Positions 2,982-57,716 of a DNA stretch of 58,657 nucleotides are shown here, in pieces. The notes beneath the pieces were generated by a model. It was not told the DNA's origin. It ran no database searches and was given only the letters and a program-made list of their open reading frames with translations. Source of the stretch: an uncultured Candidatus Saccharibacteria bacterium (GTDB lineage: Bacteria > Patescibacteriota > Minisyncoccia > Phycocordibacterales > JACNGX01). The stretch's first letter is position 1, and every line of letters starts with the position of its first letter. Location of the stretch: positions 236,252 to 294,908 of the forward strand of contig CAZULS010000002.1 in NCBI GenBank assembly GCA_964621395.1. Direction: 5' to 3'. The position numbers and the translations under genes are program-made.

Positions 2982-3126
2982 ATAACAAAAAAATATGTGC
3001 TATTAATTCCTCTTATTATATCAATTTTGCACCACACAGAACACTCTTTTTCAAGGGATAACACAGCAAACCACACAAAAATATTTTTGGCAAATTATAC
3101 TGTATATGGTACACTTGTACGCGCTA

Positions 3127-3200
3127 CGGGCTGTAGCATAGTGGTAGTGTGCACGATTCGGGTTCGTGCGGCGGCGGTTCGATTCCGCCCAGCCCGACCA
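3127..3200 (+). tRNA. tRNA-Pro (anticodon CGG), CCA encoded
   Basis: Cloverleaf folded by hand: acceptor CGGGCTG/CAGCCCG, anticodon loop TTCGGGT, T-arm GGCGG-TTCGATT-CCGCC. Confidence 0.9.
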
Positions 3201-3214
3201 AAGGGAGGGGTGGA

Positions 3215-3350
3215 ATGCCACACCTCAGATGCTAAATATTCTCCATACATTAAATTACCCCCCAAAGGGTCTAAACTATATGTATTGGGCACTTAGCTTA
3301 TGAGGTGTGGCATGTACGGAATCGAACGGCGGAGTATGTCTGGCGACTTA
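3215..3350 (+). ncRNA. partial tRNA-linked element (TLE-E0): 5' module only
   Basis: Arms ATGCCACACCTCA (3215-3227) and TGAGGTGTGGCAT (3301-3313) are followed by CGGAATCGAAC (3317-3327), which is complementary to the T-loop/stem of tRNA-Pro. The conserved 3' hairpin is missing. Confidence 0.5.
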
Positions 3351-3357
3351 ATTGTTT

Positions 3358-3428
3358 GTCATCCCGCACTTGACCCTAAACCACAAGCGGTCGGATACAA
3401 TACGGGATCTTCCCGAATATCCTCAAAG
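3358..3428 (+). repeat. long GTCAT hairpin variant (GTCATCCCGCACTTGA-insert-CGGGATC plus tail)
   Basis: Near-identical second copy at 26691-26760. Confidence 0.75.
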
Positions 3429-3440
3429 ACAAAAGAAGAA

Positions 3441-3511
3441 CGGGCCATAGTACAGTGGCAGTATGTACCCATGGGGTGGGTATGGCGGCGGTTCGATTCC
3501 GCCTGGCCCGA
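3441..3511 (+). tRNA. tRNA-Pro (anticodon GGG), no encoded CCA
   Basis: Acceptor CGGGCCA/TGGCCCG, anticodon loop ATGGGGT, T-arm GGCGG-TTCGATT-CCGCC. Confidence 0.9.
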
Positions 3512-3695
3512 ACGAACGAAGTGAGTGAGGGTCAGAGGGATGCAACTGCTTGCATCCCGTGCGGAATCGAAGGGCCGGAATATATCCTGCGCTTGCGCAG
3601 GATTTGAGGCGCCGTCCAAGAGTACTTGGCGAAATACAAGCTTCAGCGCAGTATTTCGGTTAGTAACTCTGGGACGATTCGCCTGGCCCGAACGA
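3512..3695 (+). ncRNA. tRNA-linked structured element TLE-E1 plus displaced partial tRNA-Pro 3' copy
   Basis: Hairpin at 3537-3558. GCGGAATCGAA (3561-3571) is the rc of the tRNA T-loop plus 3' T-stem. The conserved terminal hairpin spans 3614-3675 and ends TTAGTAACTCTGGGAC. Positions 3675-3695 repeat the tRNA from C56 to 4 nt past its end. Confidence 0.65.
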
Positions 3696-3696
3696 G

Positions 3697-3748
3697 AAAA
3701 CCCGAGGTTAAACCTTTGGATTTATCCAAAGGTTTAACCTCGGGTTTT
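3697..3748. terminator. 52-bp compound palindrome, probable bidirectional terminator
   Basis: AAAACCCGAGGTTAAACCTTTGGA-TTTATC-CAAAGGTTTAACCTCGGGTTTT, lying between the tRNA operon and convergent genes. Confidence 0.6.
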
Positions 3749-3784: not shown

Positions 3785-4075
3785 TTATATCATGCCAAGC
3801 TCATAGGCAAAGCTTTTTCTTCTTTCCAATTCCTCCTTCGGACTATGTTTTTCCTCACGTGGAGAAAAGAAAGAGGAAAATAGAGCAATTATTTCTGGGA
3901 AAAGAATACCTTCCACATCATCAAGTGGTACATTTACCGCATTAAAAGTAACAAAAGCACTTATGCCTGAATGGAAATCACCGGAAAATGTGCACTGACC
4001 ATTCTCAAGATTAATCAATGTTGTATGTTGCATAGCAAAAAATATTTTTGTTTTGAAATTTTCCACCATTGACAA
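3785..4075 (-). CDS. hypothetical small protein
   Basis: 96-aa ORF 17 nt downstream of ddl on the same strand. No recognisable motif. Confidence 0.3.
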   Translation of the reverse strand: MSMVENFKTKIFFAMQHTTLINLENGQCTFSGDFHSGISAFVTFNAVNVPLDDVEGILFPEIIALFSSFFSPREEKHSPKEELERRKSFAYELGMI

Positions 4076-4092
4076 TACAACATTTTAGAAAA

Positions 4093-5016
4093 TTACACAA
4101 CATCCCCCACGACCATATGCACAATATGCTCCATAACCTCTTTTTTCGTCGCCCCCACGTTCTCCATTGCACTGTGGAGCGGTGAGGTGGCGGTGAAATC
4201 AGGTGTGGTGCGTACATCACGCACGATAATTTTCTTTGGTGTGAGCGTGAGATCCACGCGAATGAATCCTTCAAGCGAGAGCGCATCGGCTGTGGCACGA
4301 GCGGTTCGTTCGGCGTCTTTCCCCTCTTCTTTTGACCATACCTGAGGTATGCCGGCGATTGTAGATACCGGAGGGAATACATATCGTTCTTCTCCGCGAA
4401 ATTCGTCAATGAGGTACACGCTCATATGTTTTCCCTGCACGTCTTCTTCTACAAACACATCGCGCACGCCAGGTTGCATATCTGAAAGTGTATGTTCCAC
4501 CTCTTCAATAGCCATAAGTGGTGAAGCCATGTGGGCATTCTCTTCCACAGGAACACTCACAATGCGGAGCGGTAAAGGATGCGTTCGCACAATCGCCAAT
4601 GCCACCTCTTGAGCACTCGGCGCATCATATGCTCGGAGCGAAACCGCATGCGGTGTGTGTATGTCGTTCTCCTTGAGGAGCGTGGCACGTCTTTCCGGAT
4701 GATGAGCGGCTTGTTCCACAAAAGGAGACGCTCCTATATACGGAATACCATGCTGCTCGGCGAGGGTTACTATGCATACGGACATAGGTGACGCACCGGG
4801 AAAGACGGGCACCACAAGAGAAAGTGTGTCGAGTATACGTGAGGGTTCCACATGTATTCCGCCTTTCCACCACTTCCCTTTCTCATCGACAAAAATATCT
4901 TCCGTATCGTATACAATATCTTCACATGCGCGAATGAGTGCCGCGCCAAGTTCGAGCGAGCGCTCGCGTTCGTGTGCTTCTCCTCCCCGTATGATACCAA
5001 TGCGTTCTGCGTACAT
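4093..5016 (-). CDS. ddl: D-alanine--D-alanine ligase-like ATP-grasp enzyme
   Basis: The N-terminal RIGIIRGGEAHERERSLELG and C-terminal GFIRVDL..TTPDFTATSP resemble Ddl family signatures. Confidence 0.7.
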   Translation of the reverse strand: MYAERIGIIRGGEAHERERSLELGAALIRACEDIVYDTEDIFVDEKGKWWKGGIHVEPSRILDTLSLVVPVFPGASPMSVCIVTLAEQHGIPYIGASPFVEQAAHHPERRATLLKENDIHTPHAVSLRAYDAPSAQEVALAIVRTHPLPLRIVSVPVEENAHMASPLMAIEEVEHTLSDMQPGVRDVFVEEDVQGKHMSVYLIDEFRGEERYVFPPVSTIAGIPQVWSKEEGKDAERTARATADALSLEGFIRVDLTLTPKKIIVRDVRTTPDFTATSPLHSAMENVGATKKEVMEHIVHMVVGDVV

Positions 5017-7846: not shown

Positions 7847-10492
7847 TTACTTCTTAATTCTCTTCTTGAGTTCCTTCTTCAAATATTTTCCCGTGTGTGA
7901 TTTCTCACTCGCAGCTACGTCTTCGGGCGTGCCTTTTGCCACGATGGTACCGCCACCTTCGCCTCCTTCAGGACCCATATCGACGAGAAAGTCGACGGAT
8001 TTAATCACGTCCATATTGTGCTCAATGGTAATCACCGTATTACCGCGCTTCACAAGCTCGTCGAGGATTCCAATCAATTTACGCACGTCTTCATAATGGA
8101 GGCCGACGGTCGGCTCATCGAGAAGATACACCGTCTTCTCCGTATGCGGACGATACAGCTCTGAAGAAATCTTCACGCGCTGCGCTTCCCCACCTGAAAG
8201 CGTCGTTGCCGATTGTCCAAGTTCGAGATATCCCAAGCCCACATCTACCAGCGTCTTCAATCGATCATAAATTGCCGGAATGTCAACGAAAAAGTCGGTT
8301 GCTTCCTCTACCGTCATGGAAAGCACATCGGTAATGCTTTTCTTCTTGTATTTCACCTCCAGTGTCTCTTTATCAAAACGCTTCCCGCCACAGACATCAC
8401 ACGTCACATACACCGTGGGCAAGAAATGCATTTCCACGGCAATGACACCATTTCCCTGGCACGCTTCACAGCGTCCGCCACCGCGCTCATTGGGCACATT
8501 AAATGAGAAGCGCCCGGATTTCCATCCGCGAATACGCGCTTCTTCCGTTGAGGCAAAAAGATCACGGATGTGGGTGAATGCGCCGGTATAGGTTGCCGGA
8601 TTGGAGCGCGGTGTGCGTCCGATGGGCGATTGATCAATCAAAATACTGCGCGAGACATATTCCGCTCCCTCAAATGACGCACAATTGTACACATCATTAC
8701 TGCGATATTTCTTCTCAAAGCGTGCACGAAGATTCTGATACAAAATCTCATGCATGAGCGACGACTTCCCCGATCCGGACACGCCGGTAATTGCCACAAA
8801 GCGCCCGAGCGGAATATCGAGTGAGAGATTTTTAATATTAAAGACCTTCCCACCGCGAATTTTAAGCGCACCTTTATTACTATCCCTGCGCTTCTCGGGC
8901 ACGGGGATGAGTTTTTCACCGCGGAGATATGAAAGGGTCTCTGATTTGGAAGGATTGGTTTTTGCTGAAAGGAGTTTGTCGAGATAGCCGGAAACAACAA
9001 CATCACCCCCGCGCACGCCGGCACCCGGCCCAATATCCACGATATAGTCGGAAGCAAAAATAGTATCTTCATCGTGCTCAACAACGAGAATGGTATTGCC
9101 CAGATCACGGAGATGCTTCAGTGTGTGAATGAGACGGTCATTATCACGCTGATGGAGGCCGATGGTCGGCTCATCAAGCACATACAGCGCACCCACAAGC
9201 TGACTGCCGAGCTGTGAAGCAAGACGAATGCGCTGTGCCTCTCCGCCTGAGAGCGTATTGGCACGGCGATCAAGCGTGAGATAATCCAAGCCTACATCAA
9301 GAAGAAATTGCAGACGATGCTCAATTTCTTTGAGGATGACCTTGGCGATTTCGTGCTCACGTTTGCTCAGCTTGAGCTCAATGAAGAAATCGGCGGCATC
9401 ACGTACCGACATAGCCGTAAGCTCCACGATATTCACCCCTATATCTTTTTTCTTCCCTTTATTTTTATTTGCTGTGCCCGGTTTTGGGTCCCCTAATGTG
9501 ACATGAAGCGCCTCTTGTCGCAGTCTGGCGCCATGGCACACTTCACACAGCTCTGTGCCAAATGCGTATTTCGTCCCCAATCCATTACATGCCGGACACG
9601 CACCATAAGGTGAATTGAATGAAAAGAGGCGTGGCTCAATTTCCGGATACGAAAAGCCATCATGCGGGCAGGCAAAGGTAGCCGAAAGAAGCGTCGTCTT
9701 CTCTCCGATACGGATACGCACCGAACCATCAGATTCCACAAGCGCGCGCTCCACCGCCTCAGCCATGCGTTCGCGTGTCGTTTTAGGGTCGGAATCAAAA
9801 TCAAGGAGATCAATCGTGTCTACCACGACATCAATTTCGTGTTTTTTCGTTTTGGTGAGGGTGATATTGTCGCGCAAACTCTTTTTCTCTCCATCCACGC
9901 GCACATGGGAAAATCCTTTGCCGAGAAGATCATAGAGGAGCTGATAGTGTTCGCCCTTGCGTCCGCGCACCACGGGCGCGCCGAGCTCCACGCCGAGTGA
10001 TTCATATGCCACGCCCATAACCTCTTTCGTATTTTTCTTCGCCTCCTTTTGCGCTGCTTTCACTTCTTTCAAAACAAAATTGATGATTTCATCCGGCGAC
10101 AATCGCTCAATCACCCTGCCACACACAAGACAATGCGGTTTGCCCACACGCGCATACAGCACGCGGAGGTAGTCGTATATTTCTGTGATGGTTGCCACCG
10201 TTGAACGCGGATTATTTGAACGGCTCTTCTGATCAATGGAAATAGCCGGCGAAAGCCCCACAATTTCATCAACATCCGGCTTCTGCATCTGACGAAGAAA
10301 TTGTCGCGCATATGCCGAAAGCGATTCCACATAGCGCCTCTGACCTTCGGCAAAAATCGTATCAAACGCCAAAGACGACTTTCCCGATCCGGAAAGCCCT
10401 GTGAAGACGACCATGGTATTGCGTGGCATTTCCACGGTAATATCCTTGAGATTATGGGTTCGCGCCCCTTTGACGATGATTTTTTCTTCCAT
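7847..10492 (-). CDS. uvrA: excinuclease ABC subunit A
   Basis: 881 aa with two ABC ATPase modules ([26 protein letters not shown] twice) and zinc-finger cysteines. Confidence 0.97.
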
Positions 10493-22381: not shown

Positions 22382-22559
22382 TCGTGCTGCCGGACTAGGA
22401 GTGCTCACTGCTCCCAAGCACCACTTTCGTAAACGAAAGGTGGTGTTCGGTCCGCTCGCGGAACCCACGGTTCCACGGACATCCTCCACGGGGCCGTTCC
22501 GGCGACCCCGACCCCCGACGAGTTCGAGTCCTAGTTCGTCGCTCTCGCTATCGCTCGTG
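22382..22559 (-). ncRNA. variant tRNA-linked element (TLE-E5) with displaced tRNA-Gln 3' copy
   Basis: The 19-nt direct repeat TCGTGCTGCCGGACTAGGA occurs at 22382-22400 and 22555-22573. A hairpin at 22516-22541 presents, in tRNA sense, ACTAGGACTCGAAC, the rc of the T-arm of tRNA-Gln. It shares the ACACCACYTTC/GAAAGTGGTG stem with TLE-E4. Confidence 0.5.
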
Positions 22560-25399: not shown

Positions 25400-26668
25400 C
25401 TAAAGCCGTCTCAGAAACTCCCCTGCTATTCTGTATACATCTTGATACGTGTCTGCATTCATGAGCTTCATGCGGAGTTCTTTTGCTCCAGGGAATCCAC
25501 GGACGTATGCGGAATAGTGCTTTTTCATGATGGCGAAGTTTTTGTTTGGGTGCATTTTTTCATAGAGTTTCGTGTGCTCGGTGAGTGTTTCAAGAATTTC
25601 TTCTACACTGCATGTATGCTCACCCCGCACCACGAGGGGTGCGGGGTTCTCTTCGTGCATGCCGCGCTGCTCACGCGGTGTATGAAGGAATATCCAAGGA
25701 TTACCAAACACCGCGCGACCAATCATGATGCCGTCGGCGCCGGTCTCTTGTGCTTTGTGTATACCGTCGGAAATGTTCGTAACATCACCATTACCGATAA
25801 TGAGCGTATGAGGTGCGTATTCATTTCGCAGCTCCACTGTACGTGCAACTCGCTCCCAACGTGCCGGTACTTTCGACATATCCTTGCGCGTGCGGGCATG
25901 GATAGTCAACGCGGGAAGATTGAGTGAAAGAAGCTCGGGAATCCACTCTTCCAGTATATCTTTCGAGAAACCAATGCGCGTCTTCACCGACACCGGCGTA
26001 TCTTTTCCCGCCGCTTTTACTCCTTCGCGCACCGCTTCCACAATCTCCTTTGCGCGCTTGGGATCACGAATAAGATCGGCGCCGGCGCGCTGCTTGATAA
26101 TCGCCTCTTGAGGGCATCCCATATTGATATCGATGCCATTGAAATTAAGCTTCGCCACTTCGCGCGCACCGATACACATCGTCTCCGGATTACCCCCAAA
26201 AATCTGCGCGATAATCGGTCGTTGCTTTTTGGTATAGGCGAGGTCGGAAATGAGATGAGGTCGCCCTTCATCGCTCGCTAATCCGTCGCAAGCGACGAAT
26301 TCAGTCCACATGATGTCCGGTCCCCCGTGTTTTGTGCTCATCAACGAATCAAACCCTCTAAAAACAGGAAAAGGTAAGAAGGAATTTTTCATGAGCTCCG
26401 CTTGGCAGTCCTCGCATCGAATATTCGGCTGCGCCTCGTTACTCAAACACGCCGCACAGGAGTGCGCCGTATTTTCCGTAACATCGGCTCGCACGAATCT
26501 TCGCCACGAGAACAAGCCATTTTCAGAGGGTTCAATTCTACTTTTCCTCGCAATAATTTCACGGAAGGCATTGTCGGTGGCATCTGCCATCGGCGCAAGC
26601 GCAAAAAACGGCTTCTTTCCTCGAACCGTATCCCACACATTCTTTTCTTGTCGGTGAAAGGTGAACAT
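25400..26668 (-). CDS. dus: tRNA-dihydrouridine synthase carrying a ~70-aa repeat-derived insertion
   Basis: LAPMADATDNAFR, IDINMGCP and a TIM-barrel Dus pattern. The start was set at MFTFHRQEK (26668). The track ORF extension to 26893 runs through repeats. Confidence 0.88.
   Translation of the reverse strand: MFTFHRQEKNVWDTVRGKKPFFALAPMADATDNAFREIIARKSRIEPSENGLFSWRRFVRADVTENTAHSCAACLSNEAQPNIRCEDCQAELMKNSFLPFPVFRGFDSLMSTKHGGPDIMWTEFVACDGLASDEGRPHLISDLAYTKKQRPIIAQIFGGNPETMCIGAREVAKLNFNGIDINMGCPQEAIIKQRAGADLIRDPKRAKEIVEAVREGVKAAGKDTPVSVKTRIGFSKDILEEWIPELLSLNLPALTIHARTRKDMSKVPARWERVARTVELRNEYAPHTLIIGNGDVTNISDGIHKAQETGADGIMIGRAVFGNPWIFLHTPREQRGMHEENPAPLVVRGEHTCSVEEILETLTEHTKLYEKMHPNKNFAIMKKHYSAYVRGFPGAKELRMKLMNADTYQDVYRIAGEFLRRL
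26346..26538 (+). mobile_element. R200 TIR element, copy C, inside the dus reading frame
   Basis: DNA alignable to 32527-32721 and 41329-41524 (CTTGGCA..CTCGCA..ATATTCGGCTG..CATCGGCTCGCACGAAT..CACGAGAA.AAGCCATTT). Its own arms are GAATCAAACCCTCTAAAAA / TTTTCAGAGGGTTCAATTC. Confidence 0.75.
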
Positions 26669-26690
26669 TGTTAGACAAAAGATAACAGGT

Positions 26691-26760
26691 GTCATCCCGC
26701 ACTTGATCCTAAACCACAAGTGGTCGGATGCAATGCGGGATCTTCCCGAATAACCTTCAA
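26691..26760 (+). repeat. long GTCAT hairpin variant, copy 2
   Basis: Matches 3358-3428. Confidence 0.75.
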
Positions 26761-26775
26761 AAATAATATATCGAA

Positions 26776-26801
26776 GATTCCGGCTCGGGGGCCGGAATGA
26801 C
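26776..26801 (-). repeat. GTCAT hairpin (CCGGC stem class)
   Basis: The rc reads GTCATTCCGGCCCCCGAGCCGGAATC. Confidence 0.75.
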
Positions 26802-26810
26802 AGGAGAAAA

Positions 26811-27668
26811 TCATTCCGCCTCCCCTTTCTCTCGGAAAAATACCTTATTCCCGAAACGCATATCAAGATACTCCCAATCGGTGTTTTCTTCAAGCGATTC
26901 CAAGACCGCTATAATATCGGTACCCACTTTATCCGGATTCACGTCAAGCGGATACATGAGATAGGTATCGTCCTCAAAGAAAAGGTAGCCGTCTTCTCCG
27001 CGAAATTCATGACGCACACCAATCAAACCACCCTCTTCCACACGTTCAACCACGGCAACAGTATTTTCAAACACCTCATCCGGAGCGATATATGTGCCGA
27101 CAGCCTCTTTTTCCACTTCGCCACCATACCACTGAAAAAACGCCGAACCGGAAAAGAGCGGTGCCTCGTCAAAGATAAATCCTTCCGTGTCCACAAAGTA
27201 ACATGTCGGTGTATATTCCTCTCCGATGAGCGCTTTGTCACGTTCACGATCGATGTATGAATCTTCACACCACAGAGACACAGGAACGCGTTCGGTAATA
27301 TCGATGATAATTGCCGTCATATTCTCTCGCTTCACAGAAAGTGTATCCACTCGAAGAAATGTTTCCATGATGCGAGTAATAATATCGTTCTTGGGGTACC
27401 AGAGCGTATTGGCACGATTCCACATGAGAAAATTATTTCCCTCCAGTTCTTGTTGTGCCAAGTCAATGACACTTTCCTCATCAATCGTCTTCACACCCTC
27501 CACCTTCACAGAACGTATGGATACCGCTTCGTGATGCGAGCCCCATGCGAGAAGTCCGACAATGCAGCACATGCCCAATACACCAATGCCGAAAAAGACG
27601 CCGAGCTTCTTGTGTTCTTTACGGCGTTTTTCTTTTCTCTTTCGATGGATGAGTGTATGGCGACGCAT
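26811..27668 (-). CDS. ftsQ: cell division protein FtsQ/DivIB-like (POTRA)
   Basis: Basic N-terminus, a TM helix, then IRSVKVEGVKTIDEESV, which is POTRA-like. Confidence 0.65.
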   Translation of the reverse strand: MRRHTLIHRKRKEKRRKEHKKLGVFFGIGVLGMCCIVGLLAWGSHHEAVSIRSVKVEGVKTIDEESVIDLAQQELEGNNFLMWNRANTLWYPKNDIITRIMETFLRVDTLSVKRENMTAIIIDITERVPVSLWCEDSYIDRERDKALIGEEYTPTCYFVDTEGFIFDEAPLFSGSAFFQWYGGEVEKEAVGTYIAPDEVFENTVAVVERVEEGGLIGVRHEFRGEDGYLFFEDDTYLMYPLDVNPDKVGTDIIAVLESLEENTDWEYLDMRFGNKVFFREKGEAE

Positions 27669-31109: not shown

Positions 31110-31150
31110 AATGGATAAGAGAAATACGAAAAACGAAACATGAAATACGT

Positions 31151-39060: not shown

Positions 39061-39238
39061 TAGATAGTGAAAGGCAGTGTGTAATGGAGGAATTATAGCA
39101 TAGATTTTTCGGAGACGTATATAACGAAGTTTTTAGTCATTAGTTGTTAGTTTTTAGCACGCGTGCTCACGCACGCTTAACACAAAACGAACAGTCCGCC
39201 AAAGTTAAGCTTTGGCGGACTACTTTACCTATATACCT

Positions 39239-40529: not shown

Positions 40530-40613
40530 GTCATCCCGCACTTGATGCGGGATCCAGAGCAAGACAAACTCATGAGACAAATCTCTAGATTCCGGCTCAG
40601 AGGCCGGAATGAC
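40530..40613. repeat. convergent doublet of GTCAT hairpins
   Basis: GTCATCCCGCACTTGATGCGGGATC and, on the rc strand, GTCATTCCGGCCTCTGAGCCGGAATC. Confidence 0.8.
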
Positions 40614-40630
40614 AACTTATTTTTTACTGT

Positions 40631-40659
40631 GCCCGAGCACGACTCGTCGTACTTTAGGG
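40631..40659 (+). repeat. S-hairpin repeat
   Basis: GCCCGAGCACGACTCGTCGTACTTTAGGG. Confidence 0.65.
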
Positions 40660-45911: not shown

Positions 45912-45986
<75 letters not shown>

Positions 45987-46072
45987 GTAGAAAATCCCCG
46001 CAAGGGGATTTTCTACTGGAGGCCACGGAGAGCAAGGCAATTGCTTGCCTTGCGTCGGGAATCGAACCCGCC
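45987..46072 (+). ncRNA. partial tRNA-linked element (TLE-E6): inverted copy of the tRNA-Cys 3' half split by a hairpin
   Basis: Hairpin at 45987-46016. TGGAGGCCACGG (46017-46028) is the rc of the tRNA 3' end. A second hairpin lies at 46032-46053. CGGGAATCGAACCCGCC (46056-46072) is the rc of the T-arm. Confidence 0.5.
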
Positions 46073-46779: not shown

Positions 46780-46951
46780 GGGATTCGGTCACAAGTCACT
46801 AAGCATAATACTTCGCCAAGGCTCGTATTCTGCTAAGTGCTTCCGACATGGCTGCGGCTTTCGAATCCCACGGCGCGACACATGGTCGCGCATCGCTTAT
46901 AGATTGGAGAGGTCAATTCGTGTTCACATCGACCACAGGAGTCTCTACATG
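46780..46951 (-). ncRNA. tRNA-linked structured element TLE-E3 (after tRNA-Leu-TAA)
   Basis: In tRNA sense: the hairpin GCGCG-ACCATGTGT-CGCGC, GTGGGATTCGAA (rc of the T-arm), and a conserved terminal hairpin (46788-46847) ending TTAGTGACTTGTGAC, followed by CGAATCCC (46780-46787). Confidence 0.6.
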
Positions 46952-47039: not shown

Positions 47040-47255
47040 AAAGCACGATGTTTGTGCTAGTGCGGACGGAGAGACTCGTCCCACGATTACTAATTATAAT
47101 GCTTCGCTAAAGCTCGCATTCTAATAAGTATCGCTGGACGCGGCTCGCAATTGTCGCAACAAGTTGCTCCAATATAGCTGCGCCGTTCGAGTCTCTCGGA
47201 CAAGACACATGGTCTTGTCCAGATATACACGTCCGTCATGACTTCAGTCTCTCTC
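47040..47255 (-). ncRNA. tRNA-linked structured element TLE-E2 (after tRNA-Leu-TAG) with 39-nt displaced tRNA 3' copy
   Basis: The core is 47079-47255. The 39-nt direct repeat at 47040-47078 equals 47256-47294 (tRNA C56 to 21 nt past the 3' end). It contains CGGACGTG (the 5' acceptor strand), the hairpin GGACAAG-ACCATGTGT-CTTGTCC, GAGAGACTCGAAC, and a terminal hairpin at 47078-47139. Confidence 0.7.
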
Positions 47256-47276
47256 AAAGCACGATGTTTGTGCTAG

Positions 47277-47358: not shown

Positions 47359-47414
47359 TTTTTCTTTCCTGAAAAGAGCCGCTCTATCGTATGCTGATAA
47401 AACGGCTTTCTCGT

Positions 47415-47721
47415 GTCCATCCACCAGTCTCGTCCCACAGTCACTAAGTAAAATGCTCCGGGCACTCGCATTTTACAAAGTGCTACTGGACGCCGAACAC
47501 CACTTTCACTTACAACAAAAGATGGTCACTGCTCGTTAGGAGAAATTCCTAACATTTAATTCACCAATCAAAGTAATCAGTGAAAGTGGTGTTTGGTTCG
47601 ATTCCTGACATGCCACACCTCACATGCAATTTTTCTCAAGCACTATATATTTACAATACCATCGCAGTAAGTCTCTACAAAAGTATTCCGTGTGAGGTGT
47701 GGCATTGTGTCTGGACTAAAG
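47415..47721 (-). ncRNA. tRNA-linked structured element TLE-E4 (after tRNA-Lys) with a nested inverted-repeat hairpin
   Basis: A nested hairpin with ATGCCACACCTCA/TGAGGTGTGGCAT arms lies at 47610-47705. CAGGAATCGAACC is the rc of 47595-47607. Also present are an ACACCACTTTCAC/GTGAAAGTGGTGT stem, a terminal hairpin at 47432-47491, and the tRNA 3' copy CTGGTGGATGGAC (rc of 47415-47427). Confidence 0.65.
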
Positions 47722-48239: not shown

Positions 48240-48629
48240 TTAATTTGACGGCCATCTATCGGCATCAGATGAGCCGGGAAGTCGTACCTCTGGAATCGGA
48301 GCAGTTCCTCCTCTATTGATGTCAAATGTTTCTGCAATTACACCAACAAGACCCCATACGGCAACCATAACAAAGAGTGTAATGATTCCGTAGATCATGA
48401 TAGTGCGTCCTTTTTCTTTGTCTTCATCTGCTTTTACAAGATACATTGCTAAACCGAAGAAGAAAATAACAACCGCCAAGGTAATCACAATCGGAATGAG
48501 CAAGTCAAGAATCCTCTTTACGACACCGAGGATGCTTATTGCCGAAGTTGCGGCAAGCACAACGCTCGGGAGAAGTGTCACTGCAAGCCCTACAATTGTG
48601 CCCTTAAATATAGACTGTTTCATAAACAT
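48240..48629 (-). CDS. TrbC/VirB2-like pilin-family protein (paralog 4)
   Basis: 129 aa with a signal-like N-terminus and two TM helices around KADEDKEKGR. Confidence 0.55.
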   Translation of the reverse strand: MFMKQSIFKGTIVGLAVTLLPSVVLAATSAISILGVVKRILDLLIPIVITLAVVIFFFGLAMYLVKADEDKEKGRTIMIYGIITLFVMVAVWGLVGVIAETFDINRGGTAPIPEVRLPGSSDADRWPSN

Positions 48630-48734
48630 ACGTGAATAAAAAATAAATAAATATTGATCCCAAAAGGATTATTCTCTAATAATACCGCAACGCGTCTCTA
48701 CTGACAATATGCGTGTGGACAGCATGGTGGCCCG

Positions 48735-49106
48735 TTATATATCAGAATAAATGCTTTCAATGATACCGCTATCGACGGTTGCATTTCCTTCCGTGCCAAA
48801 AATCGTTTGATGAGCCACTGCCATAAGCCCCCAGATAGCAACAATGACGAAAAGGGAAATAATGCCGTACGCCATAATTTTCCCTCCCTCAGCATATTTC
48901 TTAGTATCTCCTGCCGAAAACAATGTTTGTACCAGTCCGATAAGAAATGCTGCCAGAGCTGCGGTGATGAGTATCGGAACTACAATATCGGTCACACGTA
49001 TAATATTGTTCATGAGATCGCCAAACGTTCGAGGAGCAGCAAAGGCGATTATCGGCACACCGAATACGGAAGCGAATATAAGAGATGTGTGATACAGAAA
49101 TTTCAT
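48735..49106 (-). CDS. TrbC/VirB2-like pilin-family protein (paralog 3)
   Basis: 123 aa with the same architecture (SAGDTKKYAEGGK loop). Confidence 0.55.
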   Translation of the reverse strand: MKFLYHTSLIFASVFGVPIIAFAAPRTFGDLMNNIIRVTDIVVPILITAALAAFLIGLVQTLFSAGDTKKYAEGGKIMAYGIISLFVIVAIWGLMAVAHQTIFGTEGNATVDSGIIESIYSDI

Positions 49107-49126
49107 ATGCTAATCTAATGCTAGAA

Positions 49127-49441
49127 CTAAATACCTGCTCCTACCTGCTCAACTGTTGCCCGAAGAAGCTCAGCGATTGCAAGCGCGCCGAGGAGAATGG
49201 CTCCGCCGATGATTGTCCAGGTAAATGCCGTCCGTGCATCTTTAATTTTATCAGGATTCCCCTGGGCACTAATAAAGAGAAAGCCGGTATAAATAATTGC
49301 CAAAACAAGCACGGGAAATCCCACGGCAATGACAACGCGCAGAATCGCAACAATAAGCTCGGGGAGTGTGTCGATGCCACCAAGCGGGTTTGTTAATTTT
49401 TCTGTCACCGCATGTGCAACGGGTATAATGTGATGAAGCAT
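49127..49441 (-). CDS. TrbC/VirB2-like pilin-family protein (paralog 2)
   Basis: 104 aa with the same architecture (SAQGNPDKIKDAR loop). Confidence 0.6.
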   Translation of the reverse strand: MLHHIIPVAHAVTEKLTNPLGGIDTLPELIVAILRVVIAVGFPVLVLAIIYTGFLFISAQGNPDKIKDARTAFTWTIIGGAILLGALAIAELLRATVEQVGAGI

Positions 49442-49462
49442 ATAAAATATATGAAAAAATAA

Positions 49463-49846
49463 TTAACGACTTAAGAACCAAAAGTCGGCGCCCACACCAA
49501 GCCCGCTCATAATTGCGAACACAACCAACCAGGCCGCCAAGACAAGTACCAAGCCCAATGCGGCATATCCGAAGACCGTATGTGCTTTTTGGATACGACT
49601 TGGGTTTCCTCCTGCAGTGATATATAGGATACCTCCCCAAGCAAACAGCGCGGCAGCAACAAACGCAACAGTGTATGAGAAGAATCTGAGAATATTTCGT
49701 ACGAGAACAATGAGCTGATCAACATCACAATCAGGGCCATCACAGGGAATAAGGCCCCCTGCTGCATGAATCACAAAAGGAGAGACGAACATCAATACGC
49801 CGAGAAAATAAATACCAACTGTGTAGAAAGGATGTGTATTCATCAT
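49463..49846 (-). CDS. TrbC/VirB2-like pilin-family protein (paralog 1)
   Basis: 127 aa with the same architecture (TAGGNPSRIQKAH loop). Its start overlaps the stop of the upstream gene. Confidence 0.6.
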   Translation of the reverse strand: MMNTHPFYTVGIYFLGVLMFVSPFVIHAAGGLIPCDGPDCDVDQLIVLVRNILRFFSYTVAFVAAALFAWGGILYITAGGNPSRIQKAHTVFGYAALGLVLVLAAWLVVFAIMSGLGVGADFWFLSR

Positions 49847-52379: not shown

Positions 52380-52403
52380 TAGATTTATTATATTTGTCCT
52401 CTG

Positions 52404-57654: not shown

Positions 57655-57667
57655 ATGAGGTGTGGCA
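57655..57667 (+). repeat. solitary TGAGGTGTGGCAT arm
   Basis: Identical to the right arm of the hairpins at 3301-3313 and 47693-47705. No partner arm is nearby. Confidence 0.5.
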
Positions 57668-57716
57668 TTGCCAGTACGTCAGTAAATCAGGAGGTTAGTA
57701 TAAAAAAATAAGCAGC

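Follow-up and report, generated by a model that had tools for sequence, protein, structure and literature searches.

What places a second copy of a tRNA gene's own 3' end, together with an antisense copy of the same sequence, immediately downstream of that gene? The question is raised by a tRNA-Pro operon in a 58,657-nt stretch of contig CAZULS010000002.1 from an uncultured bacterium (hereafter the window, meaning the whole of that stretch). The genes of the window are ordinary bacterial housekeeping genes (UvrABC, GyrA, TopA, a short IF-2, SerRS, Tgt, MiaA, DprA and ParB), and the host is a small candidate-phyla (Parcubacteria) bacterium. The original prediction, made from the letters of the window, was that tRNA-Pro(GGG) carries a full copy and tRNA-Pro(CGG) a truncated copy of one tRNA-linked element. 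Comparing the window with 25 further stretches from Parcubacteria genomes and metagenomes (L001, L002 and so on), we describe here a family of modular, hairpin-rich elements devoid of open reading frames (ORFs), found solely on the 3' sides of tRNA genes within a Parcubacteria clade. The element is real, non-random, structured, confined to tRNA 3' flanks and evolutionarily dynamic. We put at about one half the probability that it represents non-autonomous, site-specific selfish DNA which inserts between positions 56 and 57 of tRNA genes; mobility itself, a single-stranded DNA intermediate and the class of enzyme involved are what we infer.

All features previously reported for the Pro locus were recovered at the same coordinates, with tRNA genes called by ARAGORN and Rfam. 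The locus is laid out as follows.

3087-3115, plus strand: promoter-like site TTGGCA-17-TACACT, TG-extended, before the tRNA-Pro operon (consensus match only)
3127-3200, plus strand: tRNA-Pro(CGG), CCA encoded
3201-3342, plus strand: truncated unit on the 3' side of tRNA-Pro(CGG)
3357-3420, plus strand: separate repeat resembling a repetitive extragenic palindrome (REP), a TGTCATCCCGCAC ... GCGGGATC hairpin with a nested insert, after the truncated Pro(CGG) unit and at the same place in L002
3441-3511, plus strand: tRNA-Pro(GGG), with T loop G53-T60 at 3491-3498 and junction C56|G57 at 3494|3495
3495-3515, plus strand: S1 of Pro(GGG), the copy within the working tRNA, comprising tRNA positions 57-76 and a 4-nt trailer, GATTCCGCCTGGCCCGAACGA
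3516-3536, plus strand: Pro(GGG) spacer with the antisense of the acceptor 3' strand, GGGTCAG (3529-3535), also present in L020
3537-3558, plus strand: hairpin hpB of Pro(GGG), GGGATGCAACTGCTTGCATCCC, with conserved CTGC loop and covarying stem, between the two antisense segments
3561-3571, plus strand: anti-T of Pro(GGG), GCGGAATCGAA, complementary without mismatch to TTCGATTCCGC, which is tRNA positions 54-64 (T loop and T-stem 3' strand)
3572-3613, plus strand: hpC of Pro(GGG), the second conserved core hairpin
3613-3675, plus strand: hpD of Pro(GGG), the terminal hairpin CGTCC...GGGAC, subtype A, whose last 16 nt are TTAGTAACTCTGGGAC (3660-3675); the element ends at C3675
3675/3676-3695, plus strand: S2 of Pro(GGG), displaced copy of tRNA 57-76 and trailer, (C)GATTC-GCCTGGCCCGAACGA, equal to 3494/3495-3515 less one C
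3701-3744, no strand assigned: bidirectional intrinsic-terminator palindrome of the Pro operon, 20-bp stem, found only after S2, and in L002 directly after the tRNA

The promoter-like site and the terminator together place this stretch within one tRNA operon, and the terminator palindrome does follow only the displaced copy, as had been observed. The inserted stretch measures 180 nt (3516-3695), 160 nt of which are not derived from the tRNA; the figure of about 163 nt given earlier is the span 3512-3674. The antisense segment GGGTCAG complements CTGGCCC, one G-U/G-T pair included. Behind tRNA-Pro(CGG) an anti-acceptor-like GGGGTGG (3207-3213) is followed by a long hairpin with arms ATGCCACACCTCA (3215-3227) and TGAGGTGTGGCAT (3301-3313) and by an anti-T segment, CGGAATCGAAC (3317-3327). 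This unit stops 15 nt into hpC (3328-3342), the remainder of hpC, hpD and the second tRNA copy being deleted, which agrees with the earlier account of a 5' module cut off by a GTCAT-type repeat: the repeat begins, after the break, at 3357.

On the tRNA-sense strand, units across the stretches compared share the order S1, an optional palindrome P, anti-acceptor, hpB, anti-T, hpC, hpD and S2. S1 is the tRNA from G57 up to 0-20 nt beyond its end, P is a perfect bidirectional terminator-like palindrome that stands behind monocistronic tRNAs and is missing inside operons, and anti-T reaches back to G53 and hence ends in GAAC. The consensus of hpD is CGTCC...TTAGTAAC..GGGAC, after which S2 restarts at G57. 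Units are 160-300 nt long, with S1 and S2 of 13-38 nt starting at position 57 and antisense arms that are perfect over 11-28 nt. In addition to what had been noticed before, the antisense part also spans the acceptor 3' strand, the encoded CCA and the trailer (the anti-CCA segment 3' of tRNA-Cys is TGGAGGCCACGG at 46017-46028, and an anti-trailer of 2-8 nt is present behind the Gly and Arg tRNAs of L001), which indicates that the arms were copied from the gene region and not from tRNA 5' strands.

The boundaries of these modules are fixed. hpB lies exactly at the 65/66 boundary in many different tRNAs, and GGGAC|GA is joined to the T loop and T stem of the local tRNA at 24 of the 25 distinct type-1 ends, the exception being the decayed Leu-TAA copy of the window. 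Host tRNAs cover 14 amino acids (Pro, Gly, Arg, Thr, Val, Lys, Leu, Ser, Met, Asp, Cys, Glu, Phe and Gln), and GTTC (positions 53-56), which is the universal T loop, precedes the junction in nearly all type-1 units. The proposal of a site-specific process acting at the T loop is supported, in that the junction, rather than varying freely as more copies are examined, does not wander. At least two further core families have the same architecture. Type 2, with core GGGGGTCGGGG...CCCCGTGGAGGATGTCCG...AGCAGTGAG, a contiguous antisense arm and its junction at 59|60, is found behind the tRNA-Gln of the window (22382-22558) and behind Arg and Asp tRNAs elsewhere, while type 3 (...GATGTGAGCTGCGCC|), with its junction at 56|57, occurs behind Met and Gly tRNAs. 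One array, behind tRNA-Arg(GCG) in L004, has type-1 and type-2 units in turn.

Beyond the Pro operon, the window holds five more units.

47414-47720, minus strand: type-1 unit 3' of tRNA-Lys(CTT); long-hairpin arms ATGCCACACCTCA at 47693-47705 and TGAGGTGTGGCAT at 47610-47622, anti-T 47595-47607, hpD 47432-47492, S2 47415-47427
47040-47275, minus strand: type-1 unit 3' of tRNA-Leu(TAG); anti-T 47185-47197, hpD 47078-47140, S2 of 38 nt at 47040-47077, 20 nt of it trailer
46780-46950, minus strand: degenerate type-1 unit 3' of tRNA-Leu(TAA); anti-T 46860-46871, variant end CTTAGTGACTTGTGAC at 46788-46803, S2 shrunk to CGAATCCC at 46780-46787
45987-46071, plus strand: 3'-truncated unit 3' of tRNA-Cys; palindrome P 45987-46016, anti-acceptor and anti-CCA 46017-46028, hpB 46029-46055, anti-T 46056-46071, core and S2 absent
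22382-22558, minus strand: type-2 unit 3' of tRNA-Gln(TTG); contiguous antisense 22522-22535, core GTGGAGGATGTCCG... at 22455-22489, end GGGAGCAGTGAGCAC at 22401-22415, S2 from T60 at 22382-22400

A covariance model built from 14 units scores the window copies at 157 bits (Pro-GGG), 124 (Leu-TAG), 60 (Lys), 46 (Leu-TAA), 27 (Cys) and 14.5 (Pro-CGG), so that the full and the truncated Pro copies do belong to one family, as had been supposed. The Pro, Lys and Leu units sit inside tRNA operons. At the Cys locus, 45959-46028 is one perfect 25-bp palindrome, CCGTGGCCTCCAGTAGAAAATCCCC GCAA GGGGATTTTCTACTGGAGGCCACGG, made up of the 3' end of the tRNA, a terminator-like hairpin and the anti-acceptor; if transcribed, it would compete with the acceptor stem.

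The 3' end of each tRNA was compared with the DNA downstream of it for the longest perfect repeat, inverted or direct. With the exception of Leu-CAA, all the window tRNAs (seven of eight) are followed at 21-117 nt by 11-16 nt that form a perfect reverse complement to their T loop and T stem, and five also have a direct repeat of the 3' end; when 400 downstream bases were shuffled, 0.1% of trials contained a perfect inverted match, 11 nt or longer, to the final 24 nt of the tRNA. Among the 39 non-redundant tRNAs in all sequence examined, 24 have a downstream inverted match of at least 10 nt and 21 a direct repeat, and the upstream matches found at two of the 39 are in both cases the element of the neighbouring, preceding tRNA. 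Covariance-model matches in 184 kb all lie at the 3' flank of a tRNA, and the model finds no elements in non-tRNA intergenic regions. An exact-pattern scan for the terminal hairpin in 185,579 species (one genome each) returned two records, a Candidatus Yonathbacteria and a Parcubacteria-group metagenome-assembled genome; the pattern was also found in 17 stretches of Joint Genome Institute (JGI) metagenomes, and scans of 2.9 million viral contigs with the type-1 and type-2 cores gave 0 matches. The family is thus chromosomal and, in this form, restricted to a small clade of candidate phyla radiation (CPR) bacteria.

Comparison of related loci reveals gain, loss and exchange of units. L002 is syntenic with the window (78.5% DNA identity over uvrC, 65% over a gene for a Ddl-like protein, and the same terminator), and there tRNA-Pro(GGG)...CCCGAACGA is followed directly by the terminator, with the element absent: the empty site expected had the element been inserted into a pre-existing tRNA-terminator unit. 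That part of the original prediction finds its counterpart in a relative, although precise loss through recombination of the two direct copies would leave an identical site. Behind tRNA-Pro(CGG), L002 carries a pair of identical full units plus a variant one, all three running from G57 to GGGAC. L020, which like others was chosen through the neighbouring Ddl-like protein and hence independently of the element, encodes a Ddl-like protein 62% identical to that of the window, with differing flanks, and has two units behind tRNA-Pro(CGG) and one behind tRNA-Pro(GGG). Given full tandem units at the orthologous Pro(CGG) sites of both L002 and L020, the window Pro(CGG) copy is a deletion derivative. 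Tandem arrays thus occur in L002, in L020 and, with alternating types, in L004, and the last 16 nt are retained even in truncated and in internally deleted units (among the latter Gly unit 2 of L001 and Cys unit 2 of L014).

The arms and the cores of these units have separate histories. At the Pro(GGG) site, the window, L020 and L007 have related arms and three different sets of hpB, hpC and hpD; the 5' spacer of L020, ACGAACGTAGTGAGTGAGGGTCAGA, is near-identical to that of the window, and between the window and L007 the arms track substitutions in the tRNA, including a G-U-compatible change. Subtype A of hpD, by contrast with the differing cores at this one site, is identical at 63/63 positions behind Gly-GCC in L001, Gly-TCC in L011 and Pro-CGG in L020, and the copy behind Pro-GGG of the window matches those of the three genomes at 61/63. 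Sequence elsewhere is far less alike: the neighbouring Ddl-like protein is 62% identical between the window and L020, and coding DNA 65-78% between the window and L002. The 120-nt core behind Pro-GGG of the window is 96.7% identical to one in L001, and besides it the only similar sequence between the two is an 82-nt match in a type-2 core. Taken together, core identity across loci and genomes and core differences at Pro(GGG) indicate that cores move, while arms stay with their tRNA.

Structure prediction and covariation further support a folded element. RNAalifold, applied to 14 curated units, predicted hpB, hpC and hpD, in which double-sided changes preserve 20 of the 37 pairs. In a separate alignment of 23 distinct units, which was fitted to the covariance model and so is biased towards the structure, 96.4% of cells are paired (75% when shuffled, and 29-46% with partners slid) and double-sided changes occur in 30 of 37 pairs, including 9/9 pairs of the hpB helix (helix 1); none of 500 shuffles attains any of these measures. 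Fold z-scores of single units were -5.8, -8.5 and -8.6, and -1.6 for a type-2 unit. It had been asked whether the anti-T segment pairs with the upstream tRNA or with the downstream copy, and the answer depends on what is folded: in the element alone, anti-acceptor and anti-T pair with S2 to give a tRNA-like closure, and when the tRNA is folded along with it, the structure of lowest energy has the antisense arms bound to the 3' half of that tRNA and S2 bound to its 5' acceptor strand. Wobble pairs are rare, 37/37 pairs being Watson-Crick in 10 of the 17 best units, and their near-absence suits a DNA hairpin better than an RNA.

A fixed junction, a carried tRNA 3' end, an empty site, arrays, decay, conserved termini and identical cores together lead us to favour a non-autonomous, site-specific selfish element. 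Under this reading, integration would take place between C56 and G57 in the T-loop-coding DNA of a cognate tRNA gene, with the incoming unit supplying the 3' end and often a terminator, so that the tRNA gene would stay intact and its old 3' end would be displaced downstream as S2. Through its sense and antisense arms, a single strand is predicted to fold back as a double-stranded likeness of the target (positions 57-76), in which GTTC|G would lie opposite GAAC, and hpD would likewise present a second, stem-borne cut site, GGAC|G opposite GTCC; the two folds would thus set both cut sites in stems, beside a complementary tetranucleotide at the foot of a hairpin. The folded single strands could then be cut and joined by a protein acting in trans, candidates being an HUH single-strand transposase of the IS91 or IS200/IS605 type, or a tyrosine recombinase acting on folded strands as at the integron attC or CTX-phage attP sites. 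Repeated integration or unequal crossing-over may produce the tandem arrays, and recombination between S copies may account for the precise loss of units; cores are exchanged between units. As type 2 and the Met unit break the tetranucleotide rule, and no copies lie at non-tRNA GTTC sites, targeting must use long complementarity or homology. A bolder form of the proposal, rather unlikely in our view, is a new kind of nucleic-acid-guided mobile DNA, in which antisense arms of about 20 nt would pick the cognate tRNA gene through base pairing and the sense arm would serve as the replacement 3' end, both being re-templated from the target as integration proceeds.

Several observations weigh against an insertion element of this kind. 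No candidate enzyme was found: a Pfam scan of about 50 window ORFs gave housekeeping functions only, and neither a transposase nor an integrase or reverse transcriptase was among them; when the 256 ORFs of all loci were compared with one another by BLAST, no protein family proved common to the element-bearing loci (the clusters obtained are spurious ORFs running through elements and the Ddl-like protein that is syntenic in the window, L002 and L007); and tblastn with approximate IS608 TnpA and RAYT-like queries, a weak test, found no match. The junction of type 2 lies at 59|60 without a constant tetranucleotide, and the tRNA-Met unit is preceded by GTGC rather than GTTC. Although GTTC is everywhere, the covariance model finds no copy away from a tRNA in 184 kb, so the target cannot consist of these four bases only. 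How sense and antisense arms would be rebuilt for 14 amino-acid families is accounted for by none of the models. The empty site of L002 could instead reflect precise loss by recombination between direct copies, and functional selection could explain why the 5' part at Pro(GGG) is kept, with arms tracking the tRNA, across lineages whose Ddl-like proteins are 62% identical. The Pro, Lys and Leu units of the window, lying inside tRNA operons, must be transcribed, and counts of G:T against A:C, compared as a guide to which strand folds and whether as RNA or DNA, are 10:2 in the curated alignment but 17:13 in the larger one.

A role at the RNA level is the strongest rival, though we consider it unlikely. 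Here the element would be a functional structured RNA cut from the tRNA transcript by RNase P and RNase Z, a tRNA-like minihelix made of an acceptor stem, an hpB arm and an extended T stem holding hpC and hpD, that might serve the processing or quality control of tRNAs, or accompany the cognate tRNA or stand in as its decoy, with arrays and losses arising through unequal crossing-over. The antisense arms equal the tRNA 5' acceptor strand and T-stem 5' strand, and the element with S2 closes as this idea predicts (anti-acceptor with S2 acceptor, anti-T with the S2 T region), yet a tRNA mimic needs no antisense trailer or CCA, and once the tRNA is included the best fold pairs the arms to it and destroys it. 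The window Pro, Lys and Leu units do lie between promoter and terminator of tRNA operons, but at monocistronic tRNAs a terminator-like palindrome parts the tRNA from its unit, which fits poorly with an RNA requiring co-transcription. Strong covariation, the presence of at least part of a unit at seven of the eight window tRNAs, the arms that track tRNA substitutions between the window and L007, the 5' spacer kept between the window and L020, and the 10 G:T against 2 A:C of the curated alignment all speak for such an RNA; against it, many copies are truncated, internally deleted or split by MITEs (miniature transposable elements with inverted repeats) and an insertion sequence (IS), orthologous sites vary in the presence, number and core type of units, wobble pairs are almost absent and no Rfam family matches. 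We regard as improbable a by-product of replication or repair, in which a fold-back template switch at a palindromic terminator would make the antisense arm and a second switch at the T-loop TCGA would make S2, giving an inverted triplication whose two turn-round points are then nested with REP-like hairpins as in arrays of bacterial interspersed mosaic elements (BIMEs). The strict S-antisense-S-antisense alternation in every array, the antisense copy that begins exactly at the foot of P with the trailer included, the abundance of nested small palindromic repeats in these genomes and the IS110-family IS that hits the element, as IS110s hit REPs, are all in its favour. Against it, no array passes straight from antisense to sense without a core, the smallest gap being 38 nt and still containing the hpD end; nor does this account accommodate hpB lying exactly at 65/66 in many tRNAs, a fixed junction particular to each core type, or identical cores across genomes and tRNAs.

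Two further explanations fit worse. Target-primed reverse transcription, known from R2 in ribosomal DNA, would have the bottom strand nicked opposite 56|57, with S2 of the read-through transcript annealing to the nicked target and priming cDNA synthesis into hpD and the 5' junction left variable. Such a non-autonomous retroelement would account for a fixed 3' junction with a left boundary varying from +0 to +20 nt past the tRNA, for a structured 3' module, hpD, conserved in sequence, and for co-transcription with the host RNA gene in operons; it is nevertheless very improbable, because no reverse transcriptase occurs in the window or loci, 3'-truncated copies are as common as 5'-truncated ones, the arms match the local and not a source tRNA, and there is no A-rich or other priming tail. 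Least credible of all, and in our judgement close to discounted, is that the units are attL/attR scars of integrase-mediated integration of phages or islands at the T loop followed by faulty excision: the direct repeat from the T loop to just past the 3' end and the tandem stacking at one tRNA would be so explained, but not units of 160-300 nt that lack an integrase or other ORF, a covarying hairpin interior common to 14 tRNA families, the absence of matches in 2.9 million viral contigs, or the antisense arms, which att sites leave unexplained.

Returning to the favoured reading of site-specific selfish DNA, the element would be in broad kind a non-autonomous, site-specific mobile element at tRNA genes, but it departs in a defining feature from each known family with which we compared it. 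Integrative elements of the P4 type that use the T loop, and their integrase-less derivatives between att sites (cis-mobilizable elements, CIMEs), restore the gene, displace its old 3' end and accrete in tandem. The element shares with these a direct repeat from the T loop to the 3' end, and may be likened to their logic shrunk to about 180 nt; unlike the element, they are kilobases long, encode or derive from an integrase, use one tRNA each, and have neither an antisense target copy nor a covarying core, and no integrase gene or derivative is found in the element. At integron attC and CTX attP sites a folded imperfect inverted repeat is recombined in its stem near the base, boundaries split the site, cassettes form arrays, and structure is conserved more than sequence. 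The integron integrase and attI are absent here, in contrast, the arms copy the host gene and the cassettes have no ORF. Members of the IS200/IS605 family such as IS608 are strand-specific single-strand elements with subterminal hairpins, whose cleavage and target site is recognised through base pairing with a short internal guide at a hairpin foot and which lie 3' of the target motif without duplicating it; the guide of IS608 is 4 nt and constant, whereas the complementary segment of the element is 11-28 nt and specific to the tRNA, and the weak tblastn test with an approximate query revealed no Y1 transposase here.

The IS91 family inserts one strand 3' of GTTC (also CTTG or GTCC) without target duplication and by way of a single-stranded circle, a subterminal palindrome adjoins the cut at its ter end, and gene-less fragments of 229 nt can be mobilised in trans with capture of flanking DNA (PMC13181058, PMC3189936). 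Set beside IS91, IS801, IS1294 and their miniature one-ended derivatives, the element would be cut after GTTC, which is also the universal T loop, and has GAAC, GTCC and GGAC at its hairpin feet. Unlike them, it carries sense and antisense copies of its target, its terminal tetranucleotide is GGAC and not GTTC or CTCG, its copies lie only at tRNA 3' flanks and not at the many sites typical of IS91, its Met and type-2 copies break the tetranucleotide rule, and no HUH transposase of the Y2 class was found among the roughly 50 window ORFs or in the loci. REPs, BIMEs and REPINs resemble the element in being small extragenic hairpins after genes, with alternating orientation, two kinds of linker and a role as IS110 targets (PMC11208160), but the REPs of a genome are one sequence recognised by RAYT, whereas the alternating repeat of the element differs from tRNA to tRNA and its "linkers" are conserved; no single palindrome of the element is repeated across intergenic regions.

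Known RNAs and RNA-guided systems were likewise considered. Searches of type-1 and type-2 units against Rfam 15 (which covers ribozymes, tmRNA, group I and II introns and omega RNAs), at the gathering threshold and at E values up to 10, returned tRNA only. A hammerhead, hepatitis delta virus (HDV) or other self-cleaving ribozyme at GGGAC|GA was rejected as conserved cores are missing at the junction, and a TnpB/IscB omega RNA with S2 as guide as it would target the intact tRNA gene itself. An intron (of the archaeal bulge-helix-bulge type or of group I/II) or a split or permuted tRNA is incompatible with an upstream tRNA that is complete, scoring 57-70 bits alone, in a bacterial host; an H/ACA-like guide pocket would require unpaired target bases, of which there are none, and the host is again bacterial. 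Tandem interspaced guide RNA (TIGR) arrays are Tas-associated and have two 9-nt spacers per short unit, flanked by box C/D motifs and directed against opposite DNA strands; the present units measure 160-300 nt, a single strand is the pairing partner of both antisense segments, and box C/D motifs are absent. Insertion of a core into an older antisense-sense hairpin was set aside as no empty hairpin was found. Full-text literature searches retrieved no description of such elements, and we know of no earlier one.

If guidance by the arms proves true, one conserved core would be re-programmable to any tRNA, giving protein-light, scar-free programmable insertion into essential genes. Mobile DNA classically lands in tRNA genes, but its known users are kilobase-sized and bring an integrase; a gene-less element of 160-300 nt in most tRNA genes of a streamlined CPR genome would be a new lifestyle for selfish DNA within an essential gene. 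The modules also swell the tRNA flanks of Parcubacteria, and the long palindromes and tRNA-like pseudo-3' ends that they create can interrupt assemblies and lead to wrong annotation of tRNAs and terminators.

Other mobile and repeated sequences are associated with the units. None of the units contains an ORF, but directly after S2 of Pro(GGG) in L007 lies an ORF for a 95-residue stand-alone GIY-YIG nuclease (L007:2390-2674, minus strand; Pfam E = 1e-16), whose start is flanked by a 19-bp inverted repeat (ATTCGACTTCGTTCGGCT); it was rejected as the nuclease of the element, homologues being found in no other locus examined. An IS110-family IS in L005 (Ga0268280_1025190, positions 41-1399) splits a type-1 unit at the exact boundary of anti-T (...CAGGATTCGA) and GAACGGCGGAGC..., and GA flanks it on each side. 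It has an ORF at 124-1164 with Pfam matches to DEDD_Tnp_IS110 and Transposase_20, and 11-bp subterminal inverted repeats; the sense strand of its 235-nt right end contains GGATTCGA (left target and core) and ATAGCCGA (left donor and core), putative guides of the kind expected of an IS1111-type bridge or seek RNA. IS110-family elements favour repeats such as REPs as targets (PMC11208160), and this insertion makes the tRNA-linked element a landing pad of an RNA-guided IS. Guides and DEDD recombinase both belong to the IS; the element cores show no guide pattern and the IS ends are unrelated to them, with no sequence in common, so an IS110 bridge RNA was rejected as an explanation of the cores. 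A MITE-like element of about 100-130 nt with terminal inverted repeats CCCAGC(C/T)CTA(C/T)TTTCAT (L001:2162-2391 and 4001-4100; also in L006, L009, L011, L014 and L019) recurs at the turn-round between the tRNA 3' copy and the antisense copy, or nested in hpC or hpD. A conserved module of about 110 nt, GGTGAGAAAGCGAA.AC..GGAGCTTT.GCAAGACCTTTTG.GATG.ATT.GAGGAC.TGTCCGAACAAT.C.TCCAAAAGGTGTACTGCTCCTGTAAGGAG, is nested in type-2 and type-3 cores and also occurs free-standing (L004:~725-845, L005:1564-1670, L019:~9265-9380), with no match in Rfam.

The REP-like hairpin TGTCATCCCGCAC...(T)GCGGGATC has seven copies in the window, at 3357, 14318, 26690, 39238 and 40529 on the plus strand and at 31110 and 52472 on the minus strand, and is also found upstream of tRNA-Pro(GGG) in L002. 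Its loop consists of 5 nt or of nested hairpin modules, with two inverted copies at 31110, and the nested GAGCAC...GTGCTT-type hairpin at 39238 and 52472 resembles the GAGCACCACTTT-type hairpins within some tRNA-linked units. Often adjoining this repeat is a small repeated hairpin, ATTCCGGC...GCCGGAAT (window 40590-40640, 52380-52400 and 26800-26830). A lone TGAGGTGTGGCAT, the arm of the long hairpin of Pro-CGG and Lys, lies in an intergenic region at 57656-57668 without a partner arm or nearby tRNA. At 48240-49846 on the minus strand, a short way upstream of the Lys-Leu-Leu tRNA operon, is a run of four small ORFs (123-129 residues; the fourth 104), and at least three of these, three having been scanned, match the type IV secretion pilin family PF18895. 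Finally, the dihydrouridine synthase gene at 25400-26893 on the minus strand encodes 497 residues, of which residues 99-484 match 296 positions of the Pfam Dus profile, indicating a sizeable insertion in the protein.

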